Shown here one piece after another: positions 1,929 to 14,943 of a stretch of DNA of 14,943 nucleotides (the first letter of the stretch is position 1; each line of letters starts with the position of its first letter). Under the pieces are notes generated by a model, which did no database searches, was not told the origin of the DNA, and was given only the letters and a program-made list of their open reading frames with translations. Both the position numbers and the translations under genes were made by a program. The DNA lies in UHGV virus genome UHGV-1730386; one strand, given 5' to 3'. The stretch is from a virus.

Positions 1929-4628
1929 TTAGTGGACTTCAAGCCACGATTTACCAACCTTACCAGTACCCGTTACCAAAGTATCCTTCTTCAGCCCCAA
2001 GTTTTTAGAAGCTTGACCATAATACCAGTCAGTTACTGCCTTAACTTCTGCTGTCATGCTTTCTGGACATTCCCAGCTTGTTTCGTCGTGGTAAGCACAA
2101 AGTAAACGAGCACCGATAGCTGGCTTACGACCATTTAGTTTCATCAAACCTTCATCAATCATACGACGACAAGCAAGGTTGATTGCTTCATTCTGAACTT
2201 GTGCTTCTGAACCCATCAACAGATAGTTCAAGAGTTTGTGTGGAGATTTACACCACAACCACGCCCCAGCAACCTGAACAAATCCACCTTTAGCAATTGC
2301 AGCAGTTTTACCAAAGACCTCTTCAAGAGCTTTCTTAGTTGCTTTAAAGTCAGCTTCTAAGTTATCAATCAGTTTCTTAATCTTCGGCAAACGAACAAAG
2401 TAAGTCTGCTTAGTCAATGCACCTTCTTGAGTAGTTGAAGCTTTGATGGTCTTAGCAAACTTCTCATCACCCGCACCGAACAGCAGTGCATAGATACCGT
2501 TTTTAGCTTTTTTACGACCCTTACTAATCTCGTGAAGAAGATTCTCATCCTGAGTCATACGACAAGTCAAGATATCCTGCTCATCATTCAAGCTGAAGTA
2601 AATACTGTTCAGTGTGTGAGCATCAGTGCCTGAATAGACTACGTACAAGTCGTTTTCAGAGTCATAACGCAGATACTTGTCAACTTCTGGGTTAAGGTAT
2701 TCGTCGAAGTGTTTGCAGTAATAACGACCATCTTCTTGACGAATAAACTCAATTTCTTCCTTACCTTCTGTTACTGCTTTGGTGAACTCTTTATCACCCA
2801 TAAAGTTACACAGTAACACAAGCTGTGCAGAGTTCATATCAACGGATACTACGTTGGTTCCTTCTTCACAAATCCAGACTGCCCTCATTGGTTCCCCGTA
2901 AACAGCAGCCCCAGAAGGTACGTTCACAATACCATACTGTGTCATACGACCAGTTGAAGTACCAAACACCATTGCACCAGCACTCAAGCGACCATCTGGA
3001 CGAATCTGGTTTAACCAACCTTTCTCGTCATCTTTTGAGTTCTCAATAGTTCTACGTCGGTGCATCAAAGTATAGTACTTCGCAATCTTTTGTCCAAGTT
3101 CACCTTCAATGGTGTCATAAGAAGATTCAGTAAGTTTAGGTGAAGTACGAATCAAGCAAGGCTCAAGCAAATCTGTGTACTTCCTAACAGACCAGTTATG
3201 CTCAATGTAATGAACCCCTTCATGCTCAATGTAGTTCAATCCACAACGTTCAACCATCTCATCCCACTTAGGATGTTTACGAATCATCTTCTTATTATCT
3301 TTGAAGCGACATACCTTGATTGGACGGTTATCAGAATCCTTTTTGTAGTTCCAATCATCAGGAATCCAGCCAACAGATTTCAAGTATTCCTTCACCACTG
3401 CAACTTGAGTCATACGTGAAACTTCAAACTCAATTGGTGTATAAGGTGCATCAACAAGACCTGTGTAACGGCTTGACTCCATTTCAAAGTGATTTACTAC
3501 GTGGTTATTGTAGTACTTCACAGTTTTAACTGTCTTAACTGGCTTCCAATCCTTACACTTCTTGCCAGCCTTAGCATTCAACTCATTGCAGATTGCACGA
3601 GCATCTTTCATTGCTACAAAACCTTCCCTGTACTCTTCACCAGTGACAGTGTTAGTTGGAGTGTAGCAATTACGTTTCTCAATGTTGAAAATCTTTGTAG
3701 TTGGTTTCCCATATGGCTTGATAGGGTACGTCTTCAGTTCCCCTTCACGCATCTGCTCACGATACTTTGTCTTTGGATACTTTGTGATACGTTTCAAACC
3801 ATCTACATGACCAAATGTTTCAACATACTCATTCCATGCCTTGGCAAACTCTTCACCAGTTACTTTACCTTTCGTCTTAATAGTCGGAGGTAAGAACGGT
3901 TCAACTTCAGAGGCTAACTCAGAAGTCATCTTATCCAGTTCTTCTACACAGGACTTCATAAGGTCAATGTTAGCTTTCCAACCATTAATAGCTTGTTGAC
4001 TCATCCAGAAAGAAGTCTCTTTAGCTCGCATGTAGGTTTCGTAAGTATCTACACCACACTTCTTAAGCTTAAGGTATTCATTATCCATAGCACGTTTTGC
4101 TTTGGCGTTGATTCGAATATCCTCAACAACACGGTTAAGAATATCAGCGTTCCACACACCCCACTCTTCAATCTCTGGTTTACGAACACCAACACGAGCA
4201 CCCCATGCAGCCAAGCCATGAGCACCTTTGTAACCTTTTGGTGTAGGTCTATCCATCCACTGCACACGAGATTGTATAAGTGAATCCTGAAAGAAGTCAC
4301 TCCAAGGTTTACACTTAGGATTATCAAAGTTCCACAGGTCAGGTGCAATATGGTTGAACACCCACCAGTCATAACCAAGACCATTGTGGATACAAAGGCG
4401 TTTGGCTTTCAATGCAAACTCCACACCTTCACGCAAACCACCTTTGATGTATTTTGTATACTTGTGACCAAGGATAGGCTCATCAGTGAAAACCCACACA
4501 GCAGGTTCATCACTATCATCTTTGTAATCTGCGAATGCCATAACGTGAGCTTTTGTAAACTCAAGCAGCAACCCGTCAGTTTCTGTATCACCAACCAAAT
4601 GTAAGTTTTCAAAATCTACATTGTTCAT
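1929..4628 (-). CDS. DNA polymerase, family A (Pol I / T7 gp5-like) with N-terminal 3'-5' exonuclease domain
   Basis: 899-aa ORF. Exo I motif VGDTETDGL and an HNGLGYD Exo II-like motif at the N-terminus. Polymerase motif A SVDMNSAQLVLL, motif B (O-helix) RKKAKNGIYALLFGAG, motif C YHDET. GAGGGAG RBS about 6 nt upstream of the ATG at 4628..4626. Confidence 0.92.
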   Translation of the reverse strand: MNNVDFENLHLVGDTETDGLLLEFTKAHVMAFADYKDDSDEPAVWVFTDEPILGHKYTKYIKGGLREGVEFALKAKRLCIHNGLGYDWWVFNHIAPDLWNFDNPKCKPWSDFFQDSLIQSRVQWMDRPTPKGYKGAHGLAAWGARVGVRKPEIEEWGVWNADILNRVVEDIRINAKAKRAMDNEYLKLKKCGVDTYETYMRAKETSFWMSQQAINGWKANIDLMKSCVEELDKMTSELASEVEPFLPPTIKTKGKVTGEEFAKAWNEYVETFGHVDGLKRITKYPKTKYREQMREGELKTYPIKPYGKPTTKIFNIEKRNCYTPTNTVTGEEYREGFVAMKDARAICNELNAKAGKKCKDWKPVKTVKTVKYYNNHVVNHFEMESSRYTGLVDAPYTPIEFEVSRMTQVAVVKEYLKSVGWIPDDWNYKKDSDNRPIKVCRFKDNKKMIRKHPKWDEMVERCGLNYIEHEGVHYIEHNWSVRKYTDLLEPCLIRTSPKLTESSYDTIEGELGQKIAKYYTLMHRRRTIENSKDDEKGWLNQIRPDGRLSAGAMVFGTSTGRMTQYGIVNVPSGAAVYGEPMRAVWICEEGTNVVSVDMNSAQLVLLCNFMGDKEFTKAVTEGKEEIEFIRQEDGRYYCKHFDEYLNPEVDKYLRYDSENDLYVVYSGTDAHTLNSIYFSLNDEQDILTCRMTQDENLLHEISKGRKKAKNGIYALLFGAGDEKFAKTIKASTTQEGALTKQTYFVRLPKIKKLIDNLEADFKATKKALEEVFGKTAAIAKGGFVQVAGAWLWCKSPHKLLNYLLMGSEAQVQNEAINLACRRMIDEGLMKLNGRKPAIGARLLCAYHDETSWECPESMTAEVKAVTDWYYGQASKNLGLKKDTLVTGTGKVGKSWLEVH

Positions 4629-4887
4629 TTTAACTCCCTCTCAAATCATACTGCTTAATACCCTACTCCAATTTTTATGAAAAAGCAAGTTGACAAAGCA
4701 CTTGACAAGGTGTTAATCTTTGCGGAGTGGGTTTTATCTTAATAGACTCTCTTTACAGGTTAACTATACAGATTCTTTAAAACCCTTAAAAGATTTTTAA
4801 TAGCCTTTTAAAAGCTTTAAAGTTATACGTATAGAATACGTAAAGATAAGAGATTAAAATCTTTATAGAAACTTAGTAGAGGCAATT
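4629..4887. promoter_or_regulatory. AT-rich divergent intergenic control region between the leftward polymerase block and the rightward block
   Basis: 259 bp of non-coding DNA flanked by divergent start codons at 4628 (-) and 4888 (+). Contains tandem TTGACAA heptamers (4690..4696, 4702..4708), perfect palindromes CTTTTAAAAG (4805..4814), CTTTAAAG (4815..4822) and TATACGTATA (4824..4833), and a possible leftward promoter (GGTTAA 4758..4763 and ATCTTA 4736..4741 on plus, i.e. TTAACC-N16-TAAGAT on minus). Confidence 0.45.
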
Positions 4888-5310
4888 ATGCAGAGGATGT
4901 ACATTCACCCAGATATACAAAACTTCATTGATGCTTTAGAGAAACTTGAAAGGCTTGACTTAGAAGCACAGAAGGAATACGCTTTCCATCATCGACGTAT
5001 GGTTGATGTGCAGCATGAGATAGAGTTGTCAGAAGGGTACGACGATAAGATGAAGTGTTCAGTCTTTGAGCACATGAAAGAAATATCTTCAGAAAGACGT
5101 AAAGCAAAAGATACTATCTTTTTGATAGATACCTTAAAAAATAAGTTGCAAAATGGAACGGATTTAGATAGTCTATCACAACTGCTTCAGGATGCAGAGA
5201 ATACATGGGACAGGAATTACTTCCCAAGGTCTGAAAAAGGACTTGACTTCTCTTCACAAGAAAGCTTAAGATTATCACGACTAACTATTAACAAAATGAG
5301 AGAGAATTAA
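4888..5310 (+). CDS. hypothetical protein (140 aa)
   Basis: ATG-initiated ORF with upstream AGAGG, first gene of the rightward block. No motif recognised; predicted largely helical and charged. Confidence 0.6.
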   Translation: MQRMYIHPDIQNFIDALEKLERLDLEAQKEYAFHHRRMVDVQHEIELSEGYDDKMKCSVFEHMKEISSERRKAKDTIFLIDTLKNKLQNGTDLDSLSQLLQDAENTWDRNYFPRSEKGLDFSSQESLRLSRLTINKMREN

Positions 5311-9350: not shown

Positions 9351-9484
9351 AACACTCTAAAGCATTTGAAGCAGTATTTGGAGATTCCCTGAAAGCAACT
9401 GCTGGTAAGTCTGCTGAACATTACAAAACGAAGCGAGTTCGCACTGGTAAGACTGCTCGTAAAGCTGCCAAGAAAGCTGCTTAA
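9347..9484 (+). CDS. hypothetical small Lys/Ala-rich basic protein (45 aa)
   Basis: MKHSKAFEAVFGDSLKATAGKSAEHYKTKRVRTGKTARKAAKKAA. GGAG at 9337..9340 lies 6 nt upstream of the ATG, which overlaps the upstream stop. Below the length cut-off of the supplied track. Confidence 0.4.
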   Translation: MKHSKAFEAVFGDSLKATAGKSAEHYKTKRVRTGKTARKAAKKAA

Positions 9485-9489
9485 AATGT

Positions 9490-9518
9490 TTGACATGGGG
9501 GTATGAAGCATGTAAGAT
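9490..9518 (+). promoter_or_regulatory. candidate sigma70-like promoter upstream of the SSB-like gene (TTGACA-N17-TAAGAT)
   Basis: Perfect -35 TTGACA at 9490..9495, a 17-nt spacer, then TAAGAT at 9513..9518 (4/6 to TATAAT). Downstream RBS AGAAAGAGG precedes ATG 9572. Sequence match only. Confidence 0.4.
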
Positions 9519-9571
9519 TGTACTCCCAATAAGATTTGAATTGATAGTTAATTTGAGAAAGAGGTATTAAA

Positions 9572-10426
9572 ATGTCTAAAGTTGTTAAAATGAAATCTCC
9601 GGTAGAAAAATACAACGGTAAAGAACTTGAAACTTATCGTTACCTGCTGAAAGATGTTTGGTTCTACTACTTGAATACTATTCCACGTCCTCAGAAGGGC
9701 AAGTCTGTAGACAAACATTTCCCAGGCAAAGACTGTAATTACAGCGTTTCAATTCTGGCAAAAGACGGTAACAAGCTCTTTAAAGAGTTCACCAAGTCTA
9801 AAAAAAATCCAGATGGTTGGGATAAGGTCACTACAGAGACTGTTGATGCAGATGACTTTGAAGAGAAGTTTGGTTGTGAGCCTCCATTCGAAGCTGACAC
9901 TTATTACATCCTGAAGGTTAGCCGTTCAGCAGCTTACAAAGATGGTGCTGTATGGTCAGCAAAACAGAGTTTCCCTGTGATGCTGGTTGAAGAACTGAAC
10001 GGTAAACGTGTTGCGGTTAAGCAACCTATGAAGAAAATTAAGGCAGCAAAATCTGACAAGCATGACGATGACAAGACTTACGATGTTGTCTGTCCAGATA
10101 TTGCAGTCGGTAATGGTTCTTTTGGTAGTGTGATTCTTTCGACTCACTTCTACACCTTCGAAGGTAACGTTCTAACTAAGCCAATTCAGGAGCAGTTTAT
10201 CATTGATACTCTGGTTCCATACACTGGTGGTACTGGTGGTGCAACCGAGACTGAACTTGATGAAGACGAACTGGCACTGCTTGGTCTCGCAGGTGTTGAA
10301 GACAACGGTGAAATCTCTGAAGAAGATGCAAAAGATTCTGATGATGATAAAGGTGGTGACGACGATGACGACGACCTGCCAACACCGGATGATGACGACG
10401 AAGACTTCGAGACTGACGACGAATAA
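9572..10426 (+). CDS. putative single-stranded DNA-binding protein with acidic C-terminal tail (T7 gp2.5-like architecture)
   Basis: 284 aa with a long poly-Asp/Glu tail ending DDDDDDLPTPDDDDEDFETDDE. Sits between primase-helicase and exonuclease, as in T7-like replication modules. Has the best promoter-like sequence in the window upstream and a terminator downstream. Call rests on architecture and position, not on sequence identity. Confidence 0.5.
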   Translation: MSKVVKMKSPVEKYNGKELETYRYLLKDVWFYYLNTIPRPQKGKSVDKHFPGKDCNYSVSILAKDGNKLFKEFTKSKKNPDGWDKVTTETVDADDFEEKFGCEPPFEADTYYILKVSRSAAYKDGAVWSAKQSFPVMLVEELNGKRVAVKQPMKKIKAAKSDKHDDDKTYDVVCPDIAVGNGSFGSVILSTHFYTFEGNVLTKPIQEQFIIDTLVPYTGGTGGATETELDEDELALLGLAGVEDNGEISEEDAKDSDDDKGGDDDDDDLPTPDDDDEDFETDDE

Positions 10427-10446
10427 TAGTCAGTAACTAATACAAA

Positions 10447-10474
10447 GCCCTGTACAGAACGTATAGGGCTTTTT
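10447..10474 (+). terminator. candidate rho-independent terminator after the SSB-like gene
   Basis: Stem GCCCTGTAC (10447..10455) pairs with GTATAGGGC (10461..10469), 9 bp including one G-U, around a 5-nt loop AGAAC, followed by TTTTT (10470..10474). Confidence 0.5.
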
Positions 10475-10488
10475 CGTATGGAGGTACA

Positions 10489-11529
10489 ATGAATCAGTAT
10501 ACACTTACAAAGCTCCCAGAAAGCGTTACACACGTCTTCATTGACGCAGACAGCATTGCTTACAAGGGTGCTTGTGTAGTTGAAAAAGCAAAGTACAAGT
10601 ATGTGAATAAACTTACCGCTGAAGAGTCTGATGACTTTGATAGTGCTAAGTTAGCTTCACAATGGTTAGCTGACCAGAGAGTTCTTACAGAGGAACTTGG
10701 ACTTGACTTTGATGAAGATGAGTGGGAAAGACAGACTTGGAAGGAAGCCAAGAGCGAAAAAGAAGCTATTATGGCAACTCAGCAGGTTCTTCAAGAATGG
10801 CTTAAAGTTGTCGGTAAAGAGCGTCAATGGATGGGTTACCTGACTGAGAAGGGTGTTCACAAACACAAAGACATTAAAGGTCTTGAACATCAATATCAAG
10901 GTAACAGGAAAGATGCGGTGACACCTACGCACCTAGTTGCTTGTCGTGAGTATCTTCTGTCACGACCTGAGTTTAAGCTTCTCAAAGGTGGCTTTGAAGC
11001 TGACTCAATCGTTATTGCAAAAGCTGAAAAGATGGGTAAAAAAGCTGCTCTTATGAGTATTGATAAAGACCTTCGTCAAGCTGAAGGTACATATTGTATT
11101 GATATGACTTATGAGAAAGCACCACTTATCTTTATTGCTGATAATAACATTGGAGAGATTTGGGATTGCCCTATCAAATCCAAACCAAAAGCTAAGAAGA
11201 CAGTCGGAGTAGGCTTCAAATTCCTCTGCTATCAAGCTGTAGCAGGTGATAATGCAGATAACTACTTTGGCCTTAAGGGTGCTGGTAAAGTTGCTGTAAT
11301 GAACGCTCTGGAAGGTAAAACAACCTATAGAGAATGTTTAGATGCTGTTTATGAGTTGTATGCAAAGAAAGACTCTTACACCTATGTGTCGTGGGACGGT
11401 CAAACAATTACCAGAACACCTTTAGAGTTAATGCACCAGCACTTCTGGATTGCATACCAAGAGCGAAATCCAAAGGATGATTTCACGTTTGAAAAATATG
11501 GATGGGAGCCTACTATGAATGAAGATTAA
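10489..11529 (+). CDS. 5'-3' exonuclease / flap endonuclease (T7 gp6 / RNase H-like, PIN-fold family)
   Basis: 346 aa. N-terminal acidic motif VFIDADSIAYKG, central IDKDLRQAEG, and C-terminal AGDNADNYFGLKGAGKVAV, arranged like the metal-binding Asp clusters and helix-hairpin-helix region of phage 5'-3' exonucleases. GGAGG RBS at 10480..10484. Confidence 0.7.
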   Translation: MNQYTLTKLPESVTHVFIDADSIAYKGACVVEKAKYKYVNKLTAEESDDFDSAKLASQWLADQRVLTEELGLDFDEDEWERQTWKEAKSEKEAIMATQQVLQEWLKVVGKERQWMGYLTEKGVHKHKDIKGLEHQYQGNRKDAVTPTHLVACREYLLSRPEFKLLKGGFEADSIVIAKAEKMGKKAALMSIDKDLRQAEGTYCIDMTYEKAPLIFIADNNIGEIWDCPIKSKPKAKKTVGVGFKFLCYQAVAGDNADNYFGLKGAGKVAVMNALEGKTTYRECLDAVYELYAKKDSYTYVSWDGQTITRTPLELMHQHFWIAYQERNPKDDFTFEKYGWEPTMNED

Positions 11530-12028
11530 AGGTTTCGGTAATTGTCCTGTTTATGGTCATTGGGTATCTTTATGCGGGGAAGTTGACCCCGCTAAACTGT
11601 TCGGGTTTGTCTACCTAGTCTATTGTAAGAAAACTGGACAGTATTACATTGGTAAAAAACAGTTCAATAGTATCACTAAGAAGAAGGTTGCTGGAAAGAC
11701 CAGACGTAAGGTTGTCACCAAAGAGAGTGACTGGATGGTTTACCAGACTTCTTCTGAGTACATTAAGAAAGATATTGAAGCTTTTGGTATGAAAGAGTTT
11801 GACTTCTACATTGTGCAAACCTATTATACACGAGGTGGATTAGTCTACGGAGAAGCAAATCTCCAACATAAGTTCGATGTTATGACAAAAAGGATTGACT
11901 CGAAACTCAGACTCTTCTACAATGCCAATATTGCAGCTATCAAGTTCCTTACAAAAGAAACTTATGAAGAAGCTGAGAAACGTATTAACAAAATCATGAA
12001 ACTTAACGAGAGAGAAAATCATGTTTAA
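11519..12028 (+). CDS. putative GIY-YIG family nuclease (single-domain, 169 aa)
   Basis: FGFVYLVYCKKTGQYYIGKKQF matches the GIY-(10-11 aa)-YIG pattern with VYL replacing GIY. It is followed by a basic stretch with Arg (KTRRK), then FDFYIVQ, a conserved-position Glu (GEANL) and YNAN (the GYN-like Asn). Start overlaps the exonuclease stop by 11 nt. Confidence 0.5.
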   Translation: MKIKGFGNCPVYGHWVSLCGEVDPAKLFGFVYLVYCKKTGQYYIGKKQFNSITKKKVAGKTRRKVVTKESDWMVYQTSSEYIKKDIEAFGMKEFDFYIVQTYYTRGGLVYGEANLQHKFDVMTKRIDSKLRLFYNANIAAIKFLTKETYEEAEKRINKIMKLNERENHV

Positions 12029-12230
12029 AGCTATCAAGCACGACCATCAAGCTAAAATCGAAGCTGGCTTGGATAATCTGAAGACGGTTATTGCAAAGGC
12101 TAAAGAAGCCACTGAAACAGAGATGGATGCTCTGGAGTCTCAAATTCAGCACCTGATTAACAAACGTGTTGAACTGAAAGCCCGTCTGGATTATATTTTG
12201 TCTAAACAGGAATTATTTCAGGAGGTTTAA
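12021..12230 (+). CDS. hypothetical small coiled-coil protein (69 aa)
   Basis: Start overlaps the upstream stop (ATGTTTAA) and stop overlaps the next start (TAATG at 12228..12232). Heptad-like charged sequence (KIEAGLDNLKTVIAKAKEATETEMDALESQIQHLINKRVELKARLDYIL). Confidence 0.5.
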   Translation: MFKAIKHDHQAKIEAGLDNLKTVIAKAKEATETEMDALESQIQHLINKRVELKARLDYILSKQELFQEV

Positions 12231-12985
12231 TGTTTAATTCCAGAGAATCCGTAGTAAATTGGAATCTTCGTTGTGGTAATACTCCAAAGGTTCTATACAG
12301 CCCTGAATATTGGGAATCACTGAAGAGTCAATCTCTTTGTATGTTGGAAGAAGCTAAAGAGTTAGTGGCAGCAGTTGAAGCAAAAGACCCTGTTGAAACT
12401 CTTGATGCTCAGGCTGATTTGCAGTATGTTTTAGATGGTTTGGTATTCTTGTCACAGCATGACCACGATGGTGCTATGGAAGCTGTTTGCCAGAATAACA
12501 ACCTGAAATATACAGATAGCTATCAAGAAGCTGTACAACGTATGTTTGACATTGAGAAACGTACTGGTGATGAATGCTATCTACGTCCGTCAATGGTTGA
12601 AGGTAAAGAGTGGTTTGCAGTAGTACGTAAATCAGATGGTAAGATTATGAAGCAGTCTAATCTCCCAAAAGTTCAGCTTGCAGAGTTTATCGCAGAGGTT
12701 GAATCTAAAGAGTTATTCGTGGTAGTATCTGACACATGTGTTATCTGTCAGGGCTTACTAGGAAGTCTGAGAAGCCTTGGTGTAGATAACTTCACAGAAA
12801 TTACTCCAATCAGTTCTAAAGCTGATAGAGATTTCTGTAGAGATAATGACTTGTGGGTTGCAGATATCGTTTACTACGATGGTGAGAAGTTCCATACGAC
12901 CTCATACCCGAAGTTGAACTATGATGCAAATAACCTGAAGAATTGGTTAAAAGGGGTAGGTTATAATGGATTCACAGAACACTAA
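12230..12985 (+). CDS. hypothetical two-domain protein: N-terminal MazG-like all-alpha NTP pyrophosphatase-like region plus C-terminal glutaredoxin/thioredoxin-fold-like region (CVIC)
   Basis: 251 aa. N-terminal LEEAKELVAAVEAKDPVETLDAQADLQYVLDGLVFL resembles the EExxE...D acidic helices of MazG/HisE-like proteins. C-terminal KELFVVVSDTCVICQGLLGSLRSLGVDNFTEI...DLWVADIVYYDGEKF resembles a glutaredoxin/NrdH beta-alpha-beta unit with a CxxC. CAGGAGG RBS at 12217..12223. Domain calls are pattern-level only. Confidence 0.4.
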   Translation: MFNSRESVVNWNLRCGNTPKVLYSPEYWESLKSQSLCMLEEAKELVAAVEAKDPVETLDAQADLQYVLDGLVFLSQHDHDGAMEAVCQNNNLKYTDSYQEAVQRMFDIEKRTGDECYLRPSMVEGKEWFAVVRKSDGKIMKQSNLPKVQLAEFIAEVESKELFVVVSDTCVICQGLLGSLRSLGVDNFTEITPISSKADRDFCRDNDLWVADIVYYDGEKFHTTSYPKLNYDANNLKNWLKGVGYNGFTEH

Positions 12986-13289
12986 TAAAGCAGAGGTGGC
13001 TCAGGAGAGCCATTTCTCAAACTATAATATTTCTATGACAGTATTCATGAATGATTCACTGTTAGCGAAATATGGTGAAACTCCAGATACACTTCTGGAT
13101 AACGAACAAGTTCTTAAAGCTGTCCTGTACAAATATGGCTTTAACATTGATAAAAAGTTCTCTTATGAGATTTGTCAGCACAGAAATACTTATGGTCAAG
13201 TAGTTGTAGCTCCTCTGTTTATTGGTGTAGAACGCACAGATGAGCAGTGGACTTATTTAAAACGAAATCTGGATAGATACCATGTCTAA
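12966..13289 (+). CDS. hypothetical protein (107 aa)
   Basis: ATG at 12966 is preceded by GGGGTAGG and overlaps the 3' end of the upstream gene by 20 nt. No motif recognised. Confidence 0.5.
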   Translation: MDSQNTNKAEVAQESHFSNYNISMTVFMNDSLLAKYGETPDTLLDNEQVLKAVLYKYGFNIDKKFSYEICQHRNTYGQVVVAPLFIGVERTDEQWTYLKRNLDRYHV

Positions 13290-13617
13290 AGCTAAAAAGT
13301 TGACTATTGAAGATGTTAAATCTGGTGTAGAACTAGGTGTTGACAAATATGGAGAACCACTCCACTTCGGTGACTTTGTAATGTATACAGAAGATTGCAA
13401 AGGTCGTAGTGATATTAAGTTTGGTCGTGTTGTTTCTAAAGTTCGTGGTAACTTTTCAATTGCAAGGATTGATGACAATATCCATGAAAAACTTGAAAGA
13501 ATCTTCAGTGACCAATATGGTAGCTGGTATTGCAATGCAATGTCTAAAGGCTCAATTACCAAAGTATCTCAAAGATTCTACGAACTCTGGGATAATCAAA
13601 AGATTTTTAGCATTTAA
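13282..13617 (+). CDS. hypothetical protein (111 aa)
   Basis: ATG 13282 overlaps the upstream stop (ATGTCTAA). Followed directly by a strong hairpin terminator. No motif recognised. Confidence 0.55.
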   Translation: MSKAKKLTIEDVKSGVELGVDKYGEPLHFGDFVMYTEDCKGRSDIKFGRVVSKVRGNFSIARIDDNIHEKLERIFSDQYGSWYCNAMSKGSITKVSQRFYELWDNQKIFSI

Positions 13618-13624
13618 TCTCTAA

Positions 13625-13647
13625 GGGGTCTCTTCGGAGACCCTTTT
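13625..13647 (+). terminator. rho-independent terminator (GGGTCTC-TTCG-GAGACCC followed by TTTT)
   Basis: Perfect 7-bp GC-rich stem (13626..13632 with 13637..13643) closing a TTCG tetraloop, then TTTT at 13644..13647. Lies 8 nt after the stop of ORF 13282..13617 and 20 nt before the nrdA start. Confidence 0.65.
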
Positions 13648-13666
13648 CACCTGTAGGATTCAAATA

Positions 13667-14943
13667 ATGATTAAAACTATTCGCAAATCTAACGGAAACG
13701 TTGTAACATTCGAGCCTGAACGTTTGAATAAGTGGGCTTCATGGGCTGACAAACGAGGTATTATCTGGTCAGAAGTTACAATGGAAGCTATGAAACGTGT
13801 CTATGAAGGTTGCACCACTAAAGAGATGCACCAAGCTATGATTGACGTTTGTATTGATAAGCAAAGTCAAGAATACTCTGACATGGCTGGACGACTTCTG
13901 TTAGGTATTATCTATAAAGAAGCTTTTGGTGGATTCACTAAAGTTCCAAATCTTTACGTATTTGTTAAGAATATGGAAGAGTCAGGTTTATGGGAGAAGA
14001 TGGATTACTCACGAGAAGAGTTAGAATACCTTCAAGGCTTCATCGTTCACTCAAAAGATATCTCCTATGGTTATGCAGTACTGAAACAGTTCCGTGACAA
14101 GTACGGAATCCGTGACATTAAAACTGGACAACTCTTTGAGTCACCTCAGTTTATGTTTATGGGAATGGCTATGAAAGCCTTTGAGAGACAGCCTAAGCAC
14201 CGTCGCTTAGAGGATGTTATCAAGCTGTATACTTATCTGTCAGACTTGAAAATTAATGCTCCAACTCCTTACCTGAATGGTTTGAGAGCTACTAAGTCAG
14301 GTTATGCTTCATGCTGCTTGATTAAAGCTAACGATACCGCTGAATCACTTGGTATTGCTACAAAGGTAGCTTATGATATGACTACAAAGCAAGCTGGTAT
14401 TGGTATGCTTATGGAGACCAGAACGATTGGTGACGGGATTCGTCAGAATACCATTGAGCATATGGGGAAACTCCCTTATTATAAGCTTGTACGTGCTGCT
14501 GTAGAGGCTAATAAACAAAAGAGTAGAGGTGGTTCAGCGAACAACTTCTACACTGCTCTTGACCCTCAGATTGAAGATTTACTTCGTCTGAAGCACCCTA
14601 CAACGGTTACTTCAAAGCGTATTAATGAGATGGATTACTCATTTGGAACAAACGATTACTTCTGGCAATGTGTGCAGTATGATACAGATTGGCTACTATT
14701 CTCTTACAAGGACGCTCCAAAATTGTATGATATGTTCTACACAGCAAGTGCAGATGAGTTTGCAATGGCTGTTGGACATGCGGTTCACACTGGTGTTAAA
14801 CATAAGCGAGTAAAAGCTCGTGAGATTGCTAAGTTGTTTATCCAGCAACGTTATGCAACTGGTCGTGTTTATCCGTTCTTTACGAACAACGCAAACACAC
14901 ATACGCCGTTCAAAGAACCTTTGAAAATGTCTAACCTGTGCAT
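13667..14943 (+). CDS. nrdA: ribonucleoside-diphosphate reductase large subunit (class I, NrdA), N-terminal 425 aa; 3' end beyond window
   Basis: ATG 13667 with AGGA upstream; stop-free to the window end, so absent from the track. N-terminal ATP-cone-like segment (IRKSNGNVVTFEPERL). Segments recalled as closely matching E. coli NrdA: FESPQFMFMGMAM, INAPTPYLNGLRATKSGYASCCLI, RINEMDYSFGTN, YATGRVYPFFTNNANTHTPF, and the terminal SNLC. Confidence 0.9.
   Translation, partial: MIKTIRKSNGNVVTFEPERLNKWASWADKRGIIWSEVTMEAMKRVYEGCTTKEMHQAMIDVCIDKQSQEYSDMAGRLLLGIIYKEAFGGFTKVPNLYVFVKNMEESGLWEKMDYSREELEYLQGFIVHSKDISYGYAVLKQFRDKYGIRDIKTGQLFESPQFMFMGMAMKAFERQPKHRRLEDVIKLYTYLSDLKINAPTPYLNGLRATKSGYASCCLIKANDTAESLGIATKVAYDMTTKQAGIGMLMETRTIGDGIRQNTIEHMGKLPYYKLVRAAVEANKQKSRGGSANNFYTALDPQIEDLLRLKHPTTVTSKRINEMDYSFGTNDYFWQCVQYDTDWLLFSYKDAPKLYDMFYTASADEFAMAVGHAVHTGVKHKRVKAREIAKLFIQQRYATGRVYPFFTNNANTHTPFKEPLKMSNLC

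Follow-up and report, generated by a model that had tools for sequence, protein, structure and literature searches.

What a small nuclease is doing at the end of an exonuclease gene in a phage replication block is the question raised by UHGV virus genome UHGV-1730386, of which we analyzed a stretch of 14,943 nucleotides (the window; all window features given below lie on the plus strand). The gene concerned is the open reading frame (ORF) at 11519-12028, encoding 169 amino acids plus the stop codon, which an earlier note had described from the sequence letters as a stand-alone GIY-YIG-like nuclease with three functional options: degradation of host DNA as in T4 endonuclease II, free-standing homing, or repair. 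The window belongs to the Ounavirinae (Felix O1-like myoviruses), being 99% identical to Shigella phage ESh21 and ~91% identical to Mooglevirus Silverhawkium, and the ORF is orthologous to Felix O1 p201, SUSP1 agp056, and Bas63 gene 57. Our tentative explanation, to which we give a probability of roughly 45%, is that it encodes a domesticated accessory endonuclease whose nicks or breaks would be used by the phage exonuclease during recombination, repair, or replication, where we infer the activity, the substrate, and the partnership alike. Among the three options, a nuclease of the repair or recombination type is the best fit, on the circumstantial ground that the gene recurs beside exonuclease genes, whereas the host-DNA-degrading and homing options are disfavored.

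The overlap with the exonuclease gene could be read directly from the sequence. The ATG of the GIY-YIG gene (11519-11521) gives an 11-nt overlap with the 3' end of the 346-amino-acid exonuclease ORF (10489-11529), and a Shine-Dalgarno sequence (GGGAG, 11504-11508) lies 10 nt upstream of the ATG, within the 3' end of the exonuclease gene. The stop codon in turn overlaps the ATG (12021) of the next ORF by 8 nt. The upstream protein, a candidate functional partner, was assigned as a FEN-type 5'-3' exonuclease (phrog_107, E = 8.6e-64) and gave weak matches to 5'-3' exonucleases and Pol I. As judged by comparative data, the GIY-YIG ORF is a genuine gene and not a chance ORF, because it has hundreds of orthologs and a ratio of nonsynonymous to synonymous substitution rates (dN/dS) of 0.04-0.05.

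A Pfam search placed the protein in the GIY-YIG superfamily, with PF19835 (SegE_GIY-YIG) covering residues 21-138 (E = 5.7e-27, 94.8 bits, gathering cut-off 25). No match was obtained in NCBIfam, nor in PDB sequence searches with the protein and the family profile, and the clade has no solved structure. The AlphaFold2 model, based on 85 homologs, has a predicted local distance difference test (pLDDT) score of 93.7 and a predicted template modeling (pTM) score of 0.88 and shows an alpha/beta GIY-YIG fold, where the GIY and YIG tyrosines are found on adjacent beta-strands (Y32 on 29-36, Y43-I-G45 on 42-48). In PHROGs the protein is assigned to phrog_447, named 'NAD synthetase', a name that has been copied into many RefSeq records; we rejected this label, as it had no support in Pfam, NCBIfam, the fold search, or the Felix O1 genome paper. 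An exhaustive profile search returned 2,282 cluster representatives at E <= 0.001, many of them from ocean metagenomes.

Ten residues (G29, Y32, Y43, G45, K47, W72, Y75, S78, E112, and N135) were invariant in all 260 near-full-length domains of the family. All ten are kept in the window protein, and the invariant set is identical between short and long (homing-type) family members. They comprise the GIY...YIG core, running from G29-F-V-Y32 through Y43-I-G45-K-K47 (11603-11659), the W72-x-x-Y75-x-x-S78 motif (11732-11752), the predicted metal-binding catalytic Glu112 (codon 11852-11854), and Asn135 of the YNAN motif (codon 11921-11923). The GIY-YIG core, the glutamate, and the YNAN motif of the earlier note are thereby borne out, whereas the downstream catalytic arginine that it had named is not: no arginine is invariant after YIG, the residue at R62 being an arginine in 39% of the 260 members and that at R131 in 51%. 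The invariant basic residue is instead K47, directly after YIG, and position 46 is K or R in 257/260. The I-TevI catalytic domain (PDB 1LN0 / 1MK0) is 14% identical to the window protein, and its profile alignment was insignificant (probability 13%), so that mapping of catalytic residues onto I-TevI by this route gave no usable result. The I-TevI helix carrying Arg27 and His31 is replaced in the window protein by a basic beta-hairpin and the W72/Y75/S78 loop; we infer functional equivalence of the W72/Y75/S78 motif. The hairpin is an insertion at residues 49-69 (FNSITKKKVAGKTRRKVVTKE, 11663-11725), with model strands at 50-55 and 64-69 and a gap opposite it in the hhalign alignment with T4 SegE. 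With a family median of 8 Lys/Arg per 21 residues, it is likely a sequence-independent DNA-contact arm. A candidate N-terminal zinc site (C9/H14/C19) was rejected, the cysteines not being kept beyond close relatives. Taken from its sequence and model, the ORF encodes a putative domain-only GIY-YIG endonuclease of the SegE clade (PF19835), predicted to be catalytically competent.

The absence of an appended DNA-binding domain, noted earlier, was also upheld. No NUMOD3, NUMOD1, helix-turn-helix (HTH), or zinc finger module was found in the window protein; Pfam gave PF19835 only, and outside the catalytic domain the model contains short N-terminal strands and one C-terminal helix, with no extra domain. 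Among the best 147 representatives, 65 are <=200 amino acids and 82 are longer, and the long relatives carry NUMOD3 (49/82) as well as I-HmuI-like NUMOD, NUMOD1, and various HTH domains. In total, ~40% of the family members carry the tails commonly seen in homing enzymes (NUMOD3, NUMOD1, or HTH). In a neighbor-joining tree of the 260 domains, 38 architecture changes were inferred, compared with ~79 when labels were shuffled. The window protein falls in a clade whose 15 members are all short and which belongs to a larger clade (45 short and 6 long members); on this placement the protein represents a stable short lineage and not a one-off truncation. T4 SegE shares the catalytic-domain family (hhalign probability 96%) and is a peripheral member of PF19835 (36.5 bits) that lacks both the N-terminal 'GHW' extension and the 21-residue basic hairpin of the window clade. 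In contrast to the NUMOD3, NUMOD1, or HTH tails and the sporadic occurrence that mark Seg-type homing endonucleases, the window ORF has no tail, belongs to the core genes, and shows strong purifying selection. The function of I-TevI needs its linker, zinc finger, and HTH.

These comparisons bear on the reading of the protein as a free-standing homing endonuclease, active now or until recently, or as an inter-phage marker-exclusion nuclease, that like T4 SegE would make a site-specific cut in relatives and spread into them through repair of the cut. This label is found in many GenBank records, and the Pfam family takes its name from T4 SegE, for which homing has been shown experimentally (PMC2988022). 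Further points in its favor are the tails on ~40% of the members, the frequent gain and loss of such tails in the tree, the homing-endonuclease-like contexts of some short homologs, and a dispensability in single-phage laboratory infection (described below) that suits a selfish or competition gene. Besides the missing DNA-binding module, the distribution of the gene argues in the other direction. Variable presence among otherwise syntenic relatives, which the earlier note had proposed to check, was not observed: in tblastn at >=80% identity, phage records with the gene numbered 253 and those with the exonuclease 257 (~98%), and in the 28 IMG/VR loci, recovered through the exonuclease alone, the GIY-YIG gene was downstream of the exonuclease in every case. 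Relatives infecting Erwinia, Yersinia, and Pectobacterium carry the ortholog at 50-63% identity. In Kolesnikvirus (Erwinia), the gene order is primase/helicase, hypothetical, exonuclease, GIY-YIG (8-nt overlap), small ORF, MazG, and nrdA, and the identity to the window proteins is 60% (GIY-YIG), 54% (exonuclease), and 37% (MazG).

Selection on the gene was also stronger than homing would predict. By the Nei-Gojobori method, dN/dS of the GIY-YIG gene was 0.049 against Silverhawkium and 0.040 against Bas63, matching the exonuclease (0.049 and 0.044) and below the values for MazG (0.108 and 0.133). The constraint persists across genera, whereas decay is expected of fixed homing genes. The only frameshifted ortholog among the 28 was found at L051:4995-5481 (IMGVR_UViG_2706796256, 86,231 bp, probably Escherichia phage EC6), where a +1 frameshift in an A-run splits the ORF (ATTAAAAAACGAT in this locus, ATTAAGAAAGAT in the window). 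BFVD lists the EC6 ortholog as two ORFs of 87 and 91 amino acids, and the frameshift either stems from a sequencing error or marks a rare pseudogene. Nor does the gene have an own promoter above chance, the count of promoter-like sites around it being 11 compared with 10.0 +/- 3.1 expected by chance, and a plus-strand terminator scan of 9400-13800 found none. Within the ORF, two sigma-70-like sites with 10/12 matches each (11799-11827, TTGACT-17-TATTAT, and 11895-11923, TTGACT-17-TACAAT) precede the next genes, in a region where the total is not above chance. The seg genes of T4 embed promoters serving downstream genes.

The element of the locus that is truly mobile is a different one. In 12 of the 28 loci and in phage ESh22, a ~490-bp gene with HNH_3 and AP2 domains is inserted exactly between the exonuclease and GIY-YIG genes (L002:2569-3105, L031:~4480-5020, and 12 of loci L025-L052), while it is absent from the window, where the junction lies at 11519-11529. 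By its domains, this is a typical free-standing homing endonuclease. The GIY-YIG gene, in turn, presents itself by all these comparisons as a fixed, vertically inherited, and strongly constrained replication-block gene that is not mobile. The 'homing endonuclease' label is thus unsupported, and we consider a free-standing homing role disfavored and distinctly unlikely.

The association with exonuclease genes extends to far more divergent phages. In marine contigs of ~35-42 kb, we observed the order primase/helicase, PolA, single-stranded DNA-binding protein, FEN-type exonuclease, short GIY-YIG protein (131-145 amino acids), Metallophos protein, and ribonucleotide reductase (RNR), with rIIA/B-like genes upstream of the module. 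Four proteins of this module are homologous to window proteins: GIY-YIG, by far the most conserved of them at 49-51% identity, the primase/helicase (27-30%), PolA (25%), and the exonuclease (23%); the exonuclease encoded at 10489-11529 is thus a homolog of the one adjoining the short GIY-YIG gene in the marine contigs. That the gene keeps the same place beside exonucleases only 23% identical is a further point against homing, since exonuclease genes this divergent would offer no shared DNA target. The Metallophos gene following the marine short GIY-YIG gene (~252 amino acids, calcineurin-like, PF00149, 24.3 bits in L015) was located at L015:5416-6171, L017:5398-6156, and L053:5639-6415, with one small ORF separating it from the GIY-YIG gene in L053. 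It fills the slot held by the MazG-like gene in the Ounavirinae; the 252-amino-acid product was considered as a counterpart of the window MazG-like protein and rejected, since it proved to be of the Metallophos type. In the marine contig, a search over 10 kb on each side found no gene for T7 endonuclease I. In T4-like marine contigs, the short homolog was found zero to five genes from Mre11/Rad50-type genes in the four lineages sampled. Metallophos (Mre11-type) genes adjoin the T4-like homologs too. In one T4-like contig (L019 and L020:5770-8070), an RNR large subunit gene with intein interruptions, a separate Hint-domain ORF, and an opposite-strand short GIY-YIG gene lie together in what looks like a mobile-element hot spot.

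The association of the short GIY-YIG gene with exonuclease genes, seen in gene order, is suggestive, and its recurrent placement by FEN-type or Mre11/Rad50-type exonucleases led us to propose an endonuclease-exonuclease pairing. Having no sequence-reading module, the protein would touch DNA through the basic beta-hairpin (residues 49-69) and the N-terminal strands, and its nicks or breaks would be sequence-independent, or selective for DNA structure or damage. Such cuts could give the co-expressed FEN-type 5'-3' exonuclease a place to start, a role that in T4-like relatives would fall to a Mre11/Rad50-type exonuclease, and the pair may act in recombination-primed replication, in repair, or in the trimming of replication intermediates. 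The T7 gp3/gp6 and T4 EndoII/IV-gp46/47 systems resemble this arrangement in having a small endonuclease gene beside an exonuclease gene in the replication block, although the fold of T7 gp3 is unrelated. Unlike in those systems, cooperation is here deduced from the genes, and the SUSP1 ortholog was dispensable on knockdown while the exonuclease was not. A wider and more doubtful possibility is that the short SegE-type branch is an ancient housekeeping endonuclease of the replication modules of Ounavirinae, abundant marine podovirus-like phages, and T4-like marine myoviruses, supplying nicks or breaks to FEN-type or Mre11/Rad50-type exonucleases. On that view, the Seg homing enzymes would be offshoots that gained DNA-binding tails, and it would be wrong to see the short forms as homing genes in decay.

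Several observations weigh against a domesticated endonuclease working with the exonuclease. The nuclease activity of the short clade is a prediction, and the canonical GIY-YIG arginine has no invariant counterpart in the 260 members. In 12 of 28 relatives the HNH gene separates the two genes, so that the GIY-YIG gene can do without direct translational coupling to the exonuclease. The high identity between the Ounavirinae and marine GIY-YIG proteins could reflect recent horizontal transfer instead of constraint, and the T4-like neighborhoods may share synteny and so may not be independent events. Two other sampled contexts resemble homing-endonuclease islands, one on the opposite strand between a dCMP deaminase gene and an intein-bearing RNR gene, and one beside an HNH gene. 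In the CRISPRi-ART screen of SUSP1, the GIY-YIG ortholog agp056 scored 0.50 (Kolmogorov-Smirnov p = 0.48, 7 guides) and was classed as 'Not Fit', whereas the exonuclease agp055 (1.87, p = 0.005) was classed as 'Fit', as was agp054 (2.82) (PMC11879866). By this measure, the phage needs the two proteins to different degrees. The negative result for agp056 is weak because the same screen also scored the primase/helicase as 'Not Fit' (PMC11879866), showing that false negatives occur. The GIY-YIG gene is evidently not strongly required in the laboratory host, and because knockdown of the ortholog had no measurable cost there, the role that we propose appears to be accessory or conditional.

Dispensability also bears on a junction-resolving or debranching function, in which the protein, as a functional analogue of T4 gp49 or T7 gp3, would clear branched intermediates before packaging. 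Its position in the replication module is analogous to that of T7 gene 3 beside gene 6, and no resolvase or recombinase is annotated in the SUSP2 genome, although over half of that genome is unannotated and may hide a resolvase. T4 and T7 depend on gene 49 and gene 3, respectively, for a normal yield, whereas knockdown of the SUSP1 ortholog was 'Not Fit'. As the similarity to SLX1 is weak as well, we regard this function as very unlikely.

Conservation combined with dispensability in hosts without defense systems is, on the other hand, the typical pattern of an anti-defense or anti-parasite nuclease, which would destroy the nucleic-acid part of an immune system or of a competing element (retron multicopy single-stranded DNA, a satellite, or a plasmid origin). 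Domesticated homing-type nucleases oppose satellites in ICP1 (PMC10448857), and the PhageMaP preprint reports that retron Ec67 is countered by Bas63 gp77, to which it ascribes a 'GIY-YIG catalytic domain' (PMC11482910). The gene numbers of that preprint match the Bas63 locus tags, as calibrated on g79/g80 and g84/g85, and gp77 was rejected as an ortholog of the window ORF: bas63_0077 shows no similarity to it, while the true ortholog is bas63_0057 at 87% identity. A Pfam search with bas63_0077 (L004:21949-22464) gave no GIY-YIG match at E < 0.01, and the text of the preprint does not list gene 57 with the validated counters (PMC11482910). Homologs of bas63_0077 are found in SUSP2 (gp073) and SUSP1 (agp073); these phages may contain a second, very divergent small nuclease, or the gp77 domain call may derive from structure prediction only. 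Anti-defense genes are, moreover, usually variable and found in accessory regions, whereas the GIY-YIG gene is core and embedded in replication modules from enterobacterial myoviruses to marine podovirus-like phages of very different hosts, and the known anti-satellite nucleases carry DNA-binding domains. An anti-defense role is accordingly judged to be unlikely.

The remaining option is a host-DNA endonuclease like T4 EndoII or T7 gp3, which would nick the host chromosome and let the exonuclease yield nucleotides for the adjacent nucleotide-metabolism enzymes. Endonuclease and exonuclease pairs break down host DNA in T7 (gp3 and gp6) and in T4 (EndoII/IV with gp46/47). This precedent speaks for such a role, as do the placement of the gene beside an exonuclease gene and near MazG, deoxynucleoside monophosphate kinase, and RNR genes, and the expectation that a scavenging gene is dispensable in rich medium. 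In cyanophage S-SM2, the homolog (L005:3957-4604) lies directly after nrdB, mirroring the position of denA in T4 (L056:1518-1952), which also favors the host-DNA role; the S-SM2 homolog is seemingly split into two ORFs, one labeled 'sodium:alanine symporter'. The T4 endonuclease II precedent invoked by the earlier note failed at the family level, since DenA (PDB 2WSH) matches the generic PF01541 only and is in a different Pfam family, with an hhalign probability of 0.2% against the window family and no alignment. Nor is a modified-base system known in these phages that would let a nonspecific nuclease spare the phage DNA.

Published experiments on close relatives bear directly on the host-DNA role. 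SUSP1 and SUSP2 release intact plasmids, and SUSP2 lysates contain >30-fold more of a 130-bp host rpoS target and ~10-fold more intact plasmid than those of T4 (Keen et al. 2017, PMC5241400). SUSP2 gp057 and SUSP1 agp056 are orthologs of the window ORF, the SUSP1 protein being 93.4% identical. Unlike T4, SUSP1 and SUSP2 thus leave most of the host and plasmid DNA undegraded (PMC5241400), and EndoII-like bulk destruction of host DNA is contradicted for a near-identical protein. We consider the host-DNA role, also in the form of limited nicking for nucleotide salvage, quite unlikely. According to the same study, SUSP1, SUSP2, and Felix O1 have no gene product similar to known hydrolytic endonucleases (PMC5241400), a statement that overlooks the conserved GIY-YIG gene (gp057 in SUSP2) and at least one gene of the HNH type (gp046). 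The reported phenotype stands, and it is the genomic rationale that needs qualifying.

Of the other genes around the locus, the 69-amino-acid ORF downstream of the GIY-YIG gene (12021-12230, phrog_4442) is fast-evolving, with a dN/dS of 0.15-0.52 and 41% identity to Bas63, and by this measure is not a conserved partner of the GIY-YIG gene. We rejected it as a split-off DNA-binding partner on account of its fast evolution and coiled-coil look. It is followed in the same co-directional gene block by the MazG-like pyrophosphatase gene (12230-12985, phrog_2144, E = 1.2e-91). On the 5' side of the exonuclease gene, the 284-amino-acid protein encoded at 9572-10426 (phrog_3877) had no Pfam match. Its SUSP1 ortholog agp054 showed one of the strongest fitness effects in CRISPRi-ART (2.82, p = 3e-7), and this is an important replication-block gene with no assigned function.

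The family was already known from Pfam, and the gene had been annotated inconsistently in hundreds of genomes; new are the evidence for the short clade as a core, nonmobile, and exonuclease-associated gene and the finding that both common labels are unsupported. This corrects a widely spread annotation, as the gene is listed as 'GIY-YIG homing endonuclease' or 'NAD synthetase' (phrog_447) in hundreds of phage genomes, and it qualifies the published claim that the "superspreader" phages SUSP1 and SUSP2 and phage Felix O1 have no endonuclease-like products. Felix O1-like phages are used for biocontrol of Salmonella and E. coli, and the effects of their nucleases on host and plasmid DNA are for that reason of practical relevance. 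Beyond the Ounavirinae, the results point to a very large group of uncharacterized small nucleases beside phage exonucleases, counting 2,282 cluster representatives, and offer a tractable case for the interconversion of selfish homing and housekeeping nucleases. If the short clade is indeed an ancient partner of exonucleases, the Seg-type homing enzymes would have arisen from a housekeeping nuclease.

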